A stretch of 18,432 nucleotides of DNA, taken from the IMG/VR virus record IMGVR_UViG_3300045988_002400. One strand, 5' to 3'. The notes below the pieces were generated by a model. That model saw only the letters and a list, made by a program, of their open reading frames with translations, was not told the origin of the DNA and ran no database searches. The stretch comes from a virus. Position 1 is the first letter of the stretch; each line of letters begins with the position of its first letter. Made by a program: the position numbers and the translations under genes. Below are positions 1 through 7,527 of this stretch, piece by piece.

Positions 1-10
1 AGGGGAGGGG
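1..10. repeat. Terminal tandem pentamer AGGGGAGGGG (mirrored at 18423-18432)
   Basis: Direct reading of the first 10 nt; the same sequence is present at the other end through the ITR. Confidence 0.9.
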
Positions 11-217
11 TCCCAGCCACTAGCCTTTTTCCACTGCCGCTCTATCCTGTATCTTGCTGTTGCGTTGCGTTGTGTGTTTTTCATTGCTTCTTCCGTTCTA
101 TCCTGTCATATCCTCTTTGTTGCTTTCTATTTTACCTATCTTTTTTTCGTTGTCAATTCCGCGTGTTGTTTTGCGTGCATTTTTTTTGCGTCTTTCGGTG
201 TGTTGTTTTTTGTGGTG

Positions 218-226
218 TGGTATACT
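218..226 (+). promoter_or_regulatory. Extended -10 promoter TGgTATACT inside the left ITR, firing inward
   Basis: TG at 218-219 and TATACT at 221-226, about 34 nt upstream of the ATG at 260. A GGGAAAGGAAA SD-like stretch lies at 244-254. Confidence 0.55.
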
Positions 227-259
227 GTAGTTGTCCGTTTCGAGGGAAAGGAAATAAAA

Positions 260-643
260 ATGAACATCATTCTTAATCATAAGCATGATGCGGAAGTCCA
301 GTCTCAGCTTGACAAAGCCAACTATCTCGCACGCACCCGCACCGTCGATATCGACGATGTGTACGACGCTGTTTATATTATCGAACGGAAGTTCGAGGAT
401 TGCACTAGAAAGAGTCTAGAGGGCTTGACTGTTCGTGTTGATTTAAACTCTCAGCATTTTCCGAACGCCTATCACGGCGTTCCTATGAGCACTTACTTCA
501 TGCTTGCTTACGAGAAGCGTTCGTGGCGGTTTATTCTTGCGGGGCGGTCTCGTTGTGGCGAGTATGGCAGGTATGAGGTGACGTATTTGCCTGACGCTAT
601 GCGTGAAGAATTGTTGAATAGTTTTGAATCGTTTGACTGCTGA
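260..643 (+). CDS. Hypothetical early protein (127 aa), first gene inside the left ITR
   Basis: In-frame ATG at 260 follows the SD-like GGGAAAGGAAA. The upstream extension to 65 in the ORF track is F/C/V-rich ITR sequence. No motif recognised. Confidence 0.75.
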   Translation: MNIILNHKHDAEVQSQLDKANYLARTRTVDIDDVYDAVYIIERKFEDCTRKSLEGLTVRVDLNSQHFPNAYHGVPMSTYFMLAYEKRSWRFILAGRSRCGEYGRYEVTYLPDAMREELLNSFESFDC

Positions 644-2264: not shown

Positions 2265-2702
2265 ATGGCTGACAACGAACTTACCGTAACGAACGGCAAC
2301 AATTTTTCTGCGAACGGCACTAACGCCGTATCCCACTTCTTCGATACCTCTACGATGGACGGCAAGATGGCGCTGTACAACGCCATGCAGACCGCCGATA
2401 AGGTAGATGAACACCTTAATGAACCGTTGCATGTCACCAACGTGCTGGCGCAGGCTATCGAAGTCGCCAATCAAGAGACAGGTGAAATCAATTCGTCTAC
2501 CCGCGTAGTCATTCACGCGGAGGAAGGCGACTTTGCCGCAGCCTCCCCCACGCTGGCGCACGCATTCGGCAATCTGTTCGCTATTTTCGGGACGCCGGAC
2601 ACGTGGAATCAGCCACTCGCCCTCAAGGTGGTGGAAAAAAAGAGTCGCCGTGGCTACAAGTTCTTCGACCTTGAACTGGTGTCGGAAAACAAGCGCAAGT
2701 AA
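2265..2702 (+). CDS. phi29 p5-like single-stranded DNA-binding protein
   Basis: By-eye alignment to phi29 p5: FDTSTMDGKMALYNA vs FDTETLEGQIKIFNA; RVVIHAEEGDFAAASPTLAHAFGNL vs VTTIFAADGSLYSAISKTVAEAASDL; LALKVVEKKSRRGYKFFDLEL vs FKVKVVQGTSSKGNVFFSLQL. It is also syntenic. Confidence 0.65.
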   Translation: MADNELTVTNGNNFSANGTNAVSHFFDTSTMDGKMALYNAMQTADKVDEHLNEPLHVTNVLAQAIEVANQETGEINSSTRVVIHAEEGDFAAASPTLAHAFGNLFAIFGTPDTWNQPLALKVVEKKSRRGYKFFDLELVSENKRK

Positions 2703-2730: not shown

Positions 2731-2756
2731 GGCAATGTCCCTATAGGGATGTTGCC
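2731..2756 (+). terminator. Hairpin (11-bp stem with two G-U pairs, TATA loop) after the SSB gene
   Basis: ggcaatgtccc-tata-gggatgttgcc. There is no U-tract, so it could be a terminator, a processing site or a translational structure. It contains the ATG at 2749. Confidence 0.35.
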
Positions 2757-3768
2757 GCCAGACTCACCCCCCGCCGTTCCCATCCTTTACGGCGAGGGGT
2801 GTTTCATACTCACAGGGGGAACCGTGGCGAAACGCAAAAACCGCCGACGCGCTGACAATCTGAAACGCAACGCCGCAATCAGGTCGGCACAGGCGCGCCG
2901 GGAACGAGCCGTCAGAGATTACAGTACCGGACGACTCCCCAAGAAAATCACCGAAACGTTTTTAGGAAATCTCAGTGCCCAACAGCTTGAACAGGTCGCA
3001 CGACGCATTGGGCAGGAGTTCGGAGAGCAACAGCAAGCCTTAAGAGCGCGAGATAATGAGCCGTATCAGGTTGCCCCCGACGTTCGTATCACGAAACTTG
3101 ACCGTGAGATGGCCGCGCGTCCGCTGATAACCGACGCGGAAATCGCCGCCGCCCCGTCGAAACGGCGGAAAACATTGCGGCAGCAGCAGCGCCGCAGAGT
3201 TGAGGCACGGCAGAAAATCAAGCGCGCCCAACAATTCGAAGCCTTGAGTATGGCCCGCTATACCGTAGGGGAGATGCGTGAAATGGAACGCGCAGGGGAA
3301 TCACCGTTCGACGTGTTAGGCACTCATACAATTGGCGGTTCAGCACGCGATGAACTTACGCGGAGCCGTGCGAACGTGTTCGGTACAGAGCGTGGCTTAA
3401 GCCATGCACGCGCGATGATTCGAGAGGGGAGCCGTAGGAAACTTGAACAAGAAATGCTCGAATACGCCGGACTTATTGGACGTGCGCCATTACGTGCGGG
3501 AACTAGAAAGGTTCCCGAGAGCGAGGGTGTTTCGAATTTTGATAAAGTCGCACAGCAACTTGAAGCGTTCGACTTTAGCGTAGCTCAAAAATTCGCCGCC
3601 TTGTCGAACCGTCAAAAACGATGGCTTATAAACAACACGAATTTCAGCGCCGTAGTACGCGAAGCAACATGGTATAATGATAAGGCGCATAAATGGGAAA
3701 CTAAATCGGACGCGGGGGATGTGGAGACGCGAATCGATGAATGGATGACCAACGCAGCAAGACACTAA
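2749..3768 (+). CDS. Candidate terminal protein (very basic; alternative GTG start at 2824)
   Basis: It lies immediately upstream of the protein-primed DNAP, as in phi29 (gene 3 then gene 2). It has an Arg/Lys-rich N-terminal region (AKRKNRRRADNLKRN...) and a size near 300 aa. There is only weak C-terminal resemblance to phi29 TP. GTG at 2824 has a GGGGGA SD, whereas ATG at 2749 is buried in a hairpin. Confidence 0.55.
   Translation: MLPPDSPPAVPILYGEGCFILTGGTVAKRKNRRRADNLKRNAAIRSAQARRERAVRDYSTGRLPKKITETFLGNLSAQQLEQVARRIGQEFGEQQQALRARDNEPYQVAPDVRITKLDREMAARPLITDAEIAAAPSKRRKTLRQQQRRRVEARQKIKRAQQFEALSMARYTVGEMREMERAGESPFDVLGTHTIGGSARDELTRSRANVFGTERGLSHARAMIREGSRRKLEQEMLEYAGLIGRAPLRAGTRKVPESEGVSNFDKVAQQLEAFDFSVAQKFAALSNRQKRWLINNTNFSAVVREATWYNDKAHKWETKSDAGDVETRIDEWMTNAARH
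3670..3678 (+). promoter_or_regulatory. Possible internal promoter TGgTATAAT inside the 3' end of the TP gene
   Basis: Perfect extended -10 consensus about 108 nt upstream of the DNAP ATG at 3786. It could be a chance match in coding sequence. Confidence 0.3.
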
Positions 3769-3785: not shown

Positions 3786-5246
3786 ATGCGAGAGCGTCGA
3801 ACGGCGGCAACAGACGGCGCAACATTATTGACGGATGACGGTATAACGCCATTGACGGCGAATGCCGTCATCCGGCTAACTATGCTTGATCATCATACGC
3901 GCGTATGGTGCGCACATGGATGGCAGGATATAAAGCCAATAGCGGCCGAGCTGTTGAGACGCCTCCCCCTGCAATCGAATCCGGCCAAGGATGGAGTGTA
4001 TGGCACTTTTAATATTCGCGGCCACTTCTACAGTTTCCGCGTGCGCATGGGCGGCGTCACCGTGGATTTTCTGGACGTGCGCAACATCACACGCGATGAC
4101 GGATTGAACGTTTCACGTGAAACGTTTGGAGGAGCCACCGACTTGGAAACCACATGGAATATCGCACAGGAATGCGACGCCCTGCAACTCAAGGGCACCA
4201 CCATAGCGTCTATGGCAATGAGCGATTACGTCGGGGGAGATTACGCAGGATTCAAACAGCACTTTCCGCCATTGGATAAAGCGGAATATCATCGGATGCG
4301 CCCCGCATACTATGGAGCGATAGTGTACAGCAGGCCGGGTGAATATCGGGATTGCAGGAGTTGGGATGTGAACAGTCTCTATCCGAGTATCATGCGCGAC
4401 TTTGCCATGCCGGTAGGCTCTCCCGTCTGGTATGAGGGGGAATATCATTATGACGCTGATTATCCGCTGCATATCGATGTTATCGCGTTCGACGCGCGGC
4501 TGAAAACGGGAAAAACGGCGACACTCACCAACATCCTACCCGTATGGGGGTACGAGGGCGAACGTATGGACAGCACGTTAGGCGTCGTCACCATGCCGGT
4601 AGCCGATGTGGATTGGCAGACCCTGACGGAAAACTATGATGTCCATGTGTGGGATTATGCGGGCGGCTGGAAATTCCGTAAATCGCATGGACTTTATTAC
4701 AACTACGTTGATAAATGGTTCCACGTGAAACAAACCGAAACCGGAGAGGGTCGTCAAATGGCGAAACTATTGCTTAATTCGTTGGTGGGAAAATTCGGAG
4801 CCTCACTTTACCGGCCTATGCTGCACCCGAAACCCTCTGGCGACGGCGGCGTGGATTTTACTGTGGACAAACCCGAGTCGGCCAACTCGCTCGCATGGCT
4901 ACCGACCGCCGCATATATCAACGCCTACGGTCGGCAAATACTGTCCCGTGCAATGAATGCGAACGCCGGTCGTGTACTCTACGCCGATACGGACGGCATG
5001 ATATTGGAGGGGTCAGATGCGCCCGCAGATATCGAAATGGACGATAAGAAACTGGGTGCGTGGAAAAACGACCACACCTACAGAAAACTCCGCATTCTCG
5101 GCAATCGCAAATATTGCGGCGTAGAGACAGATGGCAGCACGGTGATGCGGTTGAGTGGCGTGCATCGGGCAGCCCCTATTCCCTACGACGATTTTCTGCC
5201 GGGGTCACGCCACGTCAACGATGACGGCTGTTTTTTTGTGCTATAA
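3786..5246 (+). CDS. Protein-primed family B DNA polymerase (phi29 gp2-like), 486 aa
   Basis: - Motif A: WDVNSLYPSIM.
- YPLHI shared with phi29.
- Motif B: KLLLNSLVGKFG.
- Motif C: VLYADTDG.
- KKLGAWKNDHTYRKLRILGNRKY vs phi29 KKLGYWAHESTFKRAKYLRQKTY.
- TPR1- and TPR2-like insertions are present.
- ATG at 3786 has an AAGGA SD at 7 nt; the upstream ATG at 3741 overlaps the TP gene. Confidence 0.95.
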   Translation: MRERRTAATDGATLLTDDGITPLTANAVIRLTMLDHHTRVWCAHGWQDIKPIAAELLRRLPLQSNPAKDGVYGTFNIRGHFYSFRVRMGGVTVDFLDVRNITRDDGLNVSRETFGGATDLETTWNIAQECDALQLKGTTIASMAMSDYVGGDYAGFKQHFPPLDKAEYHRMRPAYYGAIVYSRPGEYRDCRSWDVNSLYPSIMRDFAMPVGSPVWYEGEYHYDADYPLHIDVIAFDARLKTGKTATLTNILPVWGYEGERMDSTLGVVTMPVADVDWQTLTENYDVHVWDYAGGWKFRKSHGLYYNYVDKWFHVKQTETGEGRQMAKLLLNSLVGKFGASLYRPMLHPKPSGDGGVDFTVDKPESANSLAWLPTAAYINAYGRQILSRAMNANAGRVLYADTDGMILEGSDAPADIEMDDKKLGAWKNDHTYRKLRILGNRKYCGVETDGSTVMRLSGVHRAAPIPYDDFLPGSRHVNDDGCFFVL

Positions 5247-5796: not shown

Positions 5797-7527
5797 ATGG
5801 CAACTACTCCCGTGGTGACGCCGAAGCAGCAGCTTCGCCCGCTCACCGAATTTAACAACGCTCAGATTCTGAACATGATTCGCAACGAGGCGTCGCCGGA
5901 ATACCAGCGGCGAATGCCCTCGGCCACTCAGATGAACATGGATAGGCAGATGGCTACACTCATGTCGTCCACCCAGCTCAAGAATGAGTTTTACTCGGCG
6001 CTGGTGAACCGCATCGGCGGCACTTATGTGAACACGTGGCGTTGGAACAATCCTCTCAGCGTTTTCCAGCGTGCATCGCAGGCGTATGGCGATACGTGGC
6101 AGGAAATCGCCGTTGGCATGCCGCTTGCGCAGGTCTATGATCCTGATGCGGAATATCTCGGCGCGGATAACTTCCGCAAATGGAAAATCGACGTGGACTC
6201 GCTCTATCACCGTTTAGACTTCGCCCATTGGTATCCCGCGACCACGGATGACAAGACGCTTCAGCGTGCCTTCACGTCCGAAAACGGTTTGGCCTCGCTC
6301 ACTTCGCAGATTCTCACATCCTGCTATAACGCGGCTGAAGTGGACTTGTTCGAGGCCTTGTGCCACCAATTCGTCGAGTATGCGAAGCTTGGCGGATATT
6401 GGCGTGTCCATATGGATAAGGACCTGAACAACATGGGTAGTTCGGAAACGGACGCGCGTGATATGTTGCGCCAGATTCGCGCATGGGCCGACACGCTTAA
6501 ATTCGTTTCCACCAAGTACAACGCCCGTCACATGCCGACGTTCGCTCGACCGGACGAACTCGTACTGTTCTGTTCTCCGGAAGTCAAGTCGGCGCTTGAC
6601 GTGCAGGGCCTCGCCACGGTATTCCAGCGCACCGACGCCGAACCGACCATCGACCGGATTATCGTCATTCCGCAAGACAGATTCGGCATGAATGGCGTGC
6701 AGGCCATCCTGACGACCGATAAATTCCTGATTGATATTCCGGTCATTAACGAGATGACTCAGCAGACCAATCCGGTCAACATCAATTCGGTTAACCATTA
6801 TCTGCATGTCCAGCACATCATTTCAGTGTCCGGCTTCGCTCCGGCTGTCATGTTCTGGACGGGCGCCGGTTCCACCGCGAACGTGGTGGCCCCTACCGGC
6901 ACGCAGGCTCAGACGCCGACATTCCAGCTTAAGCTTGCCATGTATGGCGGTGGCTCGGAAACTCCGAGCGATGTGGCGCGTGGTGGCGCGGTGCAAGTCA
7001 CTGCCGACACGTCTATCGGCAATGACGGTACCGCCACGTTCCGCTCCAACGCGGTCGAGTATCGTATCGGTGACACCGCCAAGCCGAAGAGCGATTACAC
7101 CTACATTTCGCCCACCGGCGTGCTGGTGGTCGGCCTCGACGAACCGAACACCACCATTCCGATTACCGCAACCGCCTTGTACACGAACCCGGCGACGCCG
7201 GAAGTGCCGGGCACCGTGTCCGCAGCCTTGGACGTGCCAGTGGTCGGTGACGGTGTTATCGGATTCAACCCGTCGATTGTCGCGTCCATTGCCGTGACAG
7301 TCCCGGGCGTGACTGTTGGACATACTGCGCAGGCTACTGCCGTGGCGACAATGATTGACGGACGCACCGCCGACGTGACCGCACAGGCGGCATGGACGTC
7401 CGGCACTCCGGCGAACGCCACCGTGTCCGAGTCCGGCGTGGTGACTGGCGTCAAAGAAGGCAGCTCTGATATCACCGCCACGCTGTTCGGCGTGTCCGGG
7501 AAGAAGAGCGTGACAGTGACCGCGTGA
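5797..7527 (+). CDS. Major capsid protein (phi29 gp8-like) with C-terminal Ig-like Big_2 domain
   Basis: By-eye alignment to phi29 gp8: NEFYSALVNRIGGTYV vs NDFITSLVDRIGLVVI; NPLSVFQRA vs NPLKKFKKG; CYNAAEVDLFEAL vs IYNSAEVDEYEYM. The C-terminus ATVSESGVVTGVKEGSSDITATLFGVSGKKSVTVTA is a typical Big_2 signature. Confidence 0.93.
   Translation: MATTPVVTPKQQLRPLTEFNNAQILNMIRNEASPEYQRRMPSATQMNMDRQMATLMSSTQLKNEFYSALVNRIGGTYVNTWRWNNPLSVFQRASQAYGDTWQEIAVGMPLAQVYDPDAEYLGADNFRKWKIDVDSLYHRLDFAHWYPATTDDKTLQRAFTSENGLASLTSQILTSCYNAAEVDLFEALCHQFVEYAKLGGYWRVHMDKDLNNMGSSETDARDMLRQIRAWADTLKFVSTKYNARHMPTFARPDELVLFCSPEVKSALDVQGLATVFQRTDAEPTIDRIIVIPQDRFGMNGVQAILTTDKFLIDIPVINEMTQQTNPVNINSVNHYLHVQHIISVSGFAPAVMFWTGAGSTANVVAPTGTQAQTPTFQLKLAMYGGGSETPSDVARGGAVQVTADTSIGNDGTATFRSNAVEYRIGDTAKPKSDYTYISPTGVLVVGLDEPNTTIPITATALYTNPATPEVPGTVSAALDVPVVGDGVIGFNPSIVASIAVTVPGVTVGHTAQATAVATMIDGRTADVTAQAAWTSGTPANATVSESGVVTGVKEGSSDITATLFGVSGKKSVTVTA

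Follow-up and report, generated by a model that had tools for sequence, protein, structure and literature searches.

A compact protein-primed DNA polymerase with a degenerate, probably inactive exonuclease site in a phi29-like phage genome

Introduction

The phi29-type DNA polymerase (DNAP) is the textbook single-subunit replicase, a highly processive enzyme that is primed by a protein, displaces strands and proofreads. Here we describe a compact relative of this enzyme, encoded at positions 3786–5246 of IMG/VR virus record IMGVR_UViG_3300045988_002400 (18,432 nt; 'the window' hereafter means this whole stretch of DNA), whose exonuclease site is non-canonical and, as judged from its sequence, probably inactive. 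The exonuclease site of phi29 DNAP includes Asp12, Glu14, Asp66, Asp169, Tyr165 and Lys143 (PMC4974454), and a recent survey states that, apart from the protein-primed family B polymerases (pPolBs) of mavirus type, essentially every family B polymerase has kept its exonuclease domain (PMC11161782).

The phi29 enzyme (gp2; 1XHX, 2PYJ) and the other full-size pPolBs (GA-1, Voltaire, Prophecy and LE1-1) have in common with the window protein their fold, motifs A and C and the terminal protein regions TPR1 and TPR2, and phi29-type genomes share with the window a phi29-type single-stranded DNA-binding protein (SSB), a candidate terminal protein encoded upstream, inverted terminal repeats (ITRs) and a phi29-like structural module. 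The window polymerase is, however, 486 amino acids (aa) long, against 560–583 aa in phi29 and the full-size relatives, and differs from them in having His for N62, Val for the motif B Tyr, RKY for KxY and a replaced S122/L123 motif. The polymerases of BadAztec1 (Badaztecvirus), BD811P2 and BP1 belong to the same clade as the window protein (34–36 % identity), are encoded in the same SSB–candidate terminal protein–polymerase order and are missing the exonuclease motifs; they have also lost the equivalents of the window residues D48 and D119, and BD811P2 and BP1 carry an extra deletion of ~10 residues at ExoIII. The deposited records of these isolates say only 'DNA polymerase'. A 2024 review covering Badaztecvirus and BD811P1 does not mention exonuclease loss, and the searchable literature yielded no account of it for the polymerases of phi29-like or Bifidobacterium phages, which is not proof that none exists.

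Results

The polymerase gene and its fold

The open reading frame (ORF) starts with an ATG at 3786, preceded by a sequence resembling a ribosome-binding site (Shine–Dalgarno-like AAGGATGG), and its stop lies at 5246. Dozens of homologues aligning at 100 % coverage are also 486 aa long, which bears out the compact polymerase reported in a preliminary description of this DNA made from the sequence alone. The features that define the enzyme are as follows.

3786..5246, + strand: family B DNA polymerase of the protein-primed type, 486 aa (PF03175, phrog_1907, phi29 DNAP, AlphaFold2, Foldseek)
4365..4385, + strand: motif A, DVNSLYP, residues 194–200, with catalytic D194 and steric-gate Y199; invariant
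4812..4880, + strand: TPR2 insertion, aligned to phi29 398–420; beta-hairpin 345–361 in the model, with strands 345–350 and 356–361
4980..4997, + strand: motif C, YADTDG, residues 399–404, with D401 and D403

The product is assigned to the pPolB family by its profile matches, its fold, the presence of motifs A and C, and both TPR1 and TPR2. PF03175 matched at E=4e-31 (108.7 bits versus a cut-off of 25.8), covering residues 135–340 only, and phrog_1907 at E=1.5e-53. Residues 155–444 aligned to phi29 DNAP 206–501 (E=2e-43), with TPR1 and TPR2 both inside this unbroken alignment, and D194, D401 and D403 were conserved in all 80 close relatives. The AlphaFold2 model, for which a 43-sequence alignment was the input, had a mean predicted local distance difference test score (pLDDT) of 91.2 and a predicted template modelling score of 0.88, with N-terminal blocks at pLDDT 88–95. 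Its best PDB match was phi29 DNAP (2pyj_B; Foldseek E=1e-39, query TM-score (TMq) 0.84), and its best viral match was the BadAztec1 polymerase (TMq 0.87, root-mean-square deviation 2.4). The best explanation is that the enzyme is the strand-displacing, protein-primed replicase of a complete phi29-like podophage. The earlier reading of the polymerase half as phi29-like is upheld for the overall alignment, motifs A and C and TPR1/TPR2, but not for motif B, where the Tyr is Val, nor for KxY, which is RKY.

The N-terminal exonuclease-fold domain

The first ~150 residues gave no direct sequence match. Comparison with canonical exonuclease domains in hhalign nonetheless recovered their homology, with a probability of 99.4 % for residues 1–194 and of 93 % (E=3e-7) for residues 1–135 alone, and the model shows the strand and helix order of the DnaQ fold: b1 (4–9), b2 (13–16), b3 (19–22), aA (25–32), b4 (37–42) and aB (46–59), with a further helix beginning at 119. 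The span 3786–4412 corresponds to residues 1–209 and so takes in this domain and motif A. Residues were mapped by MAFFT and hhalign alignment of the window protein and its compact relatives against phi29 and full-size relatives, together with the order of secondary-structure elements in the model. The features and residue equivalences obtained are listed below.

3786..4247, + strand: N-terminal exonuclease-fold domain, residues 1–154; catalytically degenerate, its phi29 counterpart being ~50 residues longer
3810..3824, + strand: ExoI remnant TDGAT (T9-D10-G11-A12-T13), from MAFFT and hhalign
3909..3929, + strand: ExoII remnant CAHGWQD (H44, D48), from MAFFT, hhalign and the model
4074..4094, + strand: DVRNITR, in place of the (S/T)Lx2h motif contacting single-stranded DNA (ssDNA) and terminal protein (phi29 D121-S122-L123)
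4128..4160, + strand: ExoIII remnant GGATDLETTWN (D119), directly after a 27-residue deletion
phi29 D12: window D10
phi29 E14: window A12
phi29 T15: window T13
phi29 N62: window H44
phi29 F65: window Q47
phi29 D66: window D48, exact in MAFFT; in hhalign shifted by one residue and gapped
phi29 S122/L123: window V98/R99
phi29 K143 and Y165: no equivalent, both falling within the 27-residue deletion
phi29 D169: window D119

Three of the four carboxylates (D10, D48 and D119) are therefore retained, and the ExoI Glu, the catalytic Tyr and the auxiliary Lys are lost. Measured against the DEDDy exonuclease motifs, the window protein departs from ExoI D-x-E, ExoIII Y-x3-D and Kx2hxA, and it has the DnaQ-like fold. 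ExoII N-x3-D reads H44-x3-D48, although MAFFT and hhalign place the Asp one residue apart; in the model D48 sits in the first turn of helix 46–59, after strand 37–42. The phi29 ssDNA ligands Asn62, Phe65, Ser122 and Leu123 are all replaced; Ser122 of phi29 is a terminal-protein contact as well as an ssDNA ligand. Among the 80 close relatives D10, H44 and D48 were each found in 80 and D119 in 79, whilst position 12 was A, T or V. The DVRNITR segment is specific to the clade described below, in which N100 is invariant.

This mapping alters the preliminary description in its details more than in its outcome. That description had proposed an inactive proofreading site, and the site is indeed non-canonical and probably inactive: acidic residues do not occupy all of the metal-ligand positions, A12 standing at that of E14, and DLE (119–121) is, as had been said, the sole D-x-E within the first 190 residues. 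Its anchoring was, however, shifted by one strand, and the substitutions that it listed were wrong for that reason. RVWCAHG had been equated with phi29 RVWAYG, but RVWCAH (39–44) sits on the ExoII strand DLYFHN, and not on the ExoI hairpin, in MAFFT, hhalign and the model, so that ExoI is TDGAT and not V-I-R or D-H-H; FNIRGHF had been equated with HNLKFDG, but FNIRGHFYSF aligns with phi29 IISRMGQWYMI. The ExoII Asp, previously assigned to a His, corresponds to D48, with H44 at the position of Asn62, and ExoIII, previously placed on E..N, is marked by D119 of DLE, which aligns with Asp169, Tyr165 being deleted. To call all of the catalytic residues substituted was thus an overstatement, since D10, D48 and D119 are kept, and there may be residual or altered exonuclease activity.

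Distribution of the degenerate site

In an exhaustive HMMER search, 2,433 relatives (E up to 0.001) were retrieved from 1.84 billion representative proteins, and motif columns were read for 118 hits and reference isolates with a locatable motif A. The N-terminus was considered full-size where the motif A Asp lay at or beyond residue 230 (n=92, three isolates included). The set D, E, N, D, K, Y, D was complete in 85 of these 92 representatives, whereas none of the compact proteins (motif A at ~154–207) had it complete; the deviation of the exonuclease site is not due to chance. The full-size polymerases of Voltaire (Glutamicibacter, 560 aa), Prophecy (Curtobacterium, 583 aa) and LE1-1 (Eggerthella, 562 aa) keep DFETT, HNLKFDG and YxxxD.

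The compact proteins (445–496 aa) form a clade that includes the window protein and the polymerases of the cultured Bifidobacterium phages BD811P2, BadAztec1 and BP1, its 21 representatives being monophyletic in 58 of 60 neighbour-joining bootstraps calculated from the polymerase domain alone. A further profile search for distant compact members added only six proteins (P0121–P0126), one of them a 256-aa fragment. In an alignment restricted to the clade (23 compact members) position 12 held A, V, T, R, S, L or G, none of them acidic, this column being placed differently in the broader motif-column alignment. The same clade-only alignment revealed that D48 and D119 are retained just in the subclade of the window protein, down to ~46 % identity, throughout which the CAHGWxD motif is also conserved. 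Outside this subclade the D48 column holds T, S, A, L, I or V, and that of D119 has P, V, A, R or N where it is not deleted. On this pattern, activity would have been lost ancestrally, after which the site eroded in individual lineages.

The site is already partly degenerate in P0266 (543 aa), the sister of the compact clade. Degenerate exonuclease motifs were also observed outside the core compact clade in P0319, P0266, P0362, P0328, P0263, P0354 and P0276, and P0319 is full-size (561 aa) yet has DFL in place of DFE. Loss of the exonuclease site may have occurred several times. The deposited BD811P2 polymerase (445 aa; L002 3387–4724) begins after the conserved N-terminal CTDG segment of BP1 and P0121–P0124, its close relatives; either its start codon was annotated too far downstream or it represents a genuine further truncation.

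Selection on the domain and search for other nucleases

Across 80 intact IMG/VR relatives the ratio of non-synonymous to synonymous substitution rates (dN/dS) was 0.081 for residues 1–154 and 0.073 for residues 155–486, and the share of variable sites was equal in the N-terminal and polymerase regions. A ratio of 0.081 in the N-terminal domain indicates strong purifying selection and a domain that is functional in some sense and not decaying. Of the 22 candidate ORFs of the window, 21 were searched against Pfam and PHROGs (PHROGs only for the late genes), with no match to an exonuclease or helicase family; the ORF at 16689–17063 (124 aa) was the one not scanned. The largest unassigned early ORF, Cys-rich and 176 aa long (1375–1905), the invariant residues of which include C55, C85, C120, C123, C134, C151 and C153, matched no known family and has homologues solely within this phage group. 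Its model is all-helical, of low confidence (pLDDT 45) and unlike the DnaQ fold.

Changes in the polymerase and thumb regions

The compact clade also deviates from other phi29-like polymerases downstream of the exonuclease-fold domain, at three places in the window protein.

4764..4796, + strand: motif B, KLLLNSLVGKF, with V334 replacing the family B Tyr (phi29 Y390)
5106..5114, + strand: RKY (R441-K442-Y443), replacing KxY (phi29 K498-T-Y500)
5154..5243, + strand: shortened thumb, in which 43 residues follow the KxY Tyr and the phi29 553–572 hairpin is missing

In the motif B Tyr column each of the 21 compact representatives had V, I, T or A, as against Y in 87 of the 97 others, and V occupied position 334 in 78 of the 80 close relatives. 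This Tyr is described as invariant in family B, and the phi29 mutant Y390S has reduced insertion discrimination (PMC1976434). The Lys of KxY was present in 97/97 of the others and never in the compact clade. Neither the motif B Tyr nor KxY is thus canonical in the window protein, but these are deviations within the pPolB family and not grounds for exclusion from it. The thumb is ~20–40 residues shorter, with 42–44 residues following the KxY Tyr in the compact clade as opposed to 62–81 in full-size proteins. The hairpin at phi29 553–572 bears residues implicated in the coordination of synthesis and degradation (PMC1475753). The first Asp of motif C is Asn in eight of the 21 compact representatives, whereas the window protein keeps it as D401 (4986–4988). 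Primer-independent PolBs likewise do without the first motif C Asp.

Genome context

The window is a complete linear phi29-like phage genome with ITRs at both termini. The following features accompany the polymerase gene.

1..260, no strand assigned: left ITR, with the 5' end AGGGGAGGGG
2265..2702, + strand: phi29-type SSB (PF17427 E=4e-15; phrog_6243)
2749..3768, + strand: candidate terminal protein, 339 aa, proposed from synteny only (SSB, ORF, polymerase); its true start may lie downstream
18173..18432, no strand assigned: right ITR

The ITRs are 260 nt long, 96 % complementary and reach both ends, and the first 120 bases are identical between the two 5' ends. Both open with AGGGGAGGGG, a direct pentanucleotide repeat; terminal reiteration of this type is employed in the sliding-back or jumping-back that follows protein-primed initiation. 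The candidate terminal protein is homologous only to the ORFs preceding the polymerase gene in the Bifidobacterium phages BadAztec1, BD811P2 and BP1 (E 1e-15 to 1e-22) and had no detectable similarity to the known terminal proteins of phi29, Voltaire and Prophecy, than which it is ~70 residues longer. Its acidic C-terminus, GDVETRxDEWM, is kept in close relatives.

The structural set is phi29-like, comprising major head, tail and upper and lower collar proteins and an encapsidation ATPase, and is accompanied by two lysins, encoded as separate lysin-like proteins at 14314–15567 and 17060–17851. The major head protein (5797–7527) has a C-terminal Ig-like domain at residues ~490–575. In its size (within ~18–20 kb), ITRs, SSB, pPolB, head, collar and tail proteins and ATPase the genome is that of a phi29-like podophage, Salasmaviridae-like and related to Badaztecvirus. 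Megablast against deposited phages gave no nucleotide-level match for the window. By protein the nearest isolates are the Bifidobacterium podophages BD811P2, BadAztec and BP1 (~35 % identity), whilst dozens of metagenomic relatives exist at 85–95 % identity, one cluster of which is labelled as a Bifidobacterium breve metagenome-assembled genome. The host is most likely a Bifidobacterium.

Discussion

We consider the N-terminal domain to be a structural pseudo-exonuclease in a non-proofreading replicase, with a probability of roughly 70 %. The DnaQ-like fold has stayed in place, and the change of the ExoI Glu to Ala, the deletion of the segment carrying the Tyr and Lys and the replacement of the ssDNA ligands would together have turned the domain into a pseudo-exonuclease that no longer excises nucleotides. 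The thumb hairpin, which directs the end of the primer to the exonuclease site, is truncated as well. Selection presumably keeps the domain for its architecture. The exonuclease domain of phi29 helps to shape the downstream-template tunnel for strand displacement and touches the terminal protein; because it serves strand displacement there, we infer that the window protein has kept its domain in a structural role. The genome would then be copied without intrinsic proofreading and with lower fidelity, loss of the motif B Tyr probably lowering insertion selectivity too, and a genome of 18 kb may be able to tolerate the missing proofreading.

Several observations weigh against a structural pseudo-exonuclease and are best considered alongside the alternative that they favour, namely that the exonuclease is attenuated or altered yet still works, with D10, D48, D119 and H44 giving weak or metal-specific 3'–5' excision. 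Within the window's subclade (at least 46 % identity) D10, H44 and D48 never vary and D119 hardly does (it is present in 79 of the 80 close relatives), CAHGWxD extends throughout, and D10 and D48 are among only four of 19 acidic positions conserved across the subclade, which suggests constraint on the site. The residue equivalences, moreover, derive from alignments of sequences and profiles and from the order of secondary-structure elements, such that E121, D17 or D18 could occupy the E14 position, and the first 10 residues, D10 included, align in global mode only. It is mainly because D10 and D48 are conserved that we assign a working nuclease some weight, though we consider it unlikely. No acidic residue stands at the E14 position in the clade-only alignment, the segment with Tyr165 and Lys143 is deleted, other residues stand in for N62, F65, S122 and L123, the thumb hairpin is cut short, and sister lineages, cultured phages included, also do without D48 and D119. 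There is also a non-catalytic reason for retention: the phi29 D12A/D66A mutant is impaired in strand displacement, to which D12 and D66 contribute (PMC6351526), and the conservation of D10 and D48 could be explained in this way.

Fidelity might instead be preserved despite a dead domain if a separate phage or host exonuclease proofread in trans, as DnaQ-type trans-acting subunits are established to do in bacterial Pol III. Several early ORFs have no detectable family and could in principle supply such an activity, but no exonuclease family was found in the 21 of 22 ORFs scanned (ORF 16689–17063 was outside the scan), and the 176-aa ORF is group-specific and, in its low-confidence model, all-helical and unlike DnaQ; we regard proofreading in trans as improbable, and more so than a weakened exonuclease. 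A miscalled start or frameshift hiding a true ExoI upstream, or a decaying pseudogene in a metagenomic assembly, was also considered, given that an alternative ATG at 3741 would add 15 residues and that the upstream ORF ends in GDVETR, superficially like ExoI D-x-E-T. The 15 added residues contain no motif, GDVETR is in a different frame, and strand b1 with D10 already fills the ExoI position in a confident model. The homologues are 486 aa long, the 80 intact relatives have a dN/dS of ~0.08 and cultured phages share the same architecture. Homologue length, model and dN/dS effectively refute an artefact of start, pseudogene or assembly.

A further, tentative extension of the structural pseudo-exonuclease, and one that we think doubtful as yet, is that this lineage of gut Bifidobacterium phages consists of natural DNA-phage mutators, in which a dead exonuclease and a truncated thumb would be combined with a low-selectivity polymerase that has lost the motif B Tyr; in the window's subclade D10, H44, D48 and D119 would no longer form a nuclease site but would have taken on a new task, such as strand displacement or the handling of the terminal protein.

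Were the domain indeed a structural pseudo-exonuclease, proofreading would be dispensable for an 18-kb tailed phage, and the structural and catalytic roles of the exonuclease domain would have been separated in nature, a separation so far approached solely via D12A/D66A mutants made by engineering, in which strand displacement suffers too. Elevated mutation rates would be predicted in abundant phages of infant and adult gut Bifidobacterium, and the clade would be a source of compact (445–486 aa) strand-displacing enzymes, exonuclease-minus by nature, for use in amplification and in sequencing chemistry.

Polymerases without proofreading have precedents both in family B and among pPolBs. The pPolBs of mavirus-type virophages and polinton-like viruses are likewise a protein-primed PolB lineage without intrinsic proofreading (PMC11161782), but in these the domain has been physically reduced to a remnant or replaced and a helicase gained, whereas the window protein has a folded, selected domain and no helicase was found among the ORFs scanned. 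Retention of the exonuclease fold with loss of its catalytic motifs, as in the window protein, is seen in Pol alpha, Pol zeta, archaeal PolB2 (PMC7544198) and phage divPolA1 (PMC11348598). These enzymes, however, are RNA- or DNA-primed, multi-subunit, accessory or of family A, and none serves a small phage as its only, protein-primed replicase. What would be new here is this condition in a clade of phi29-like phages, which we put forward as a prediction from sequence.

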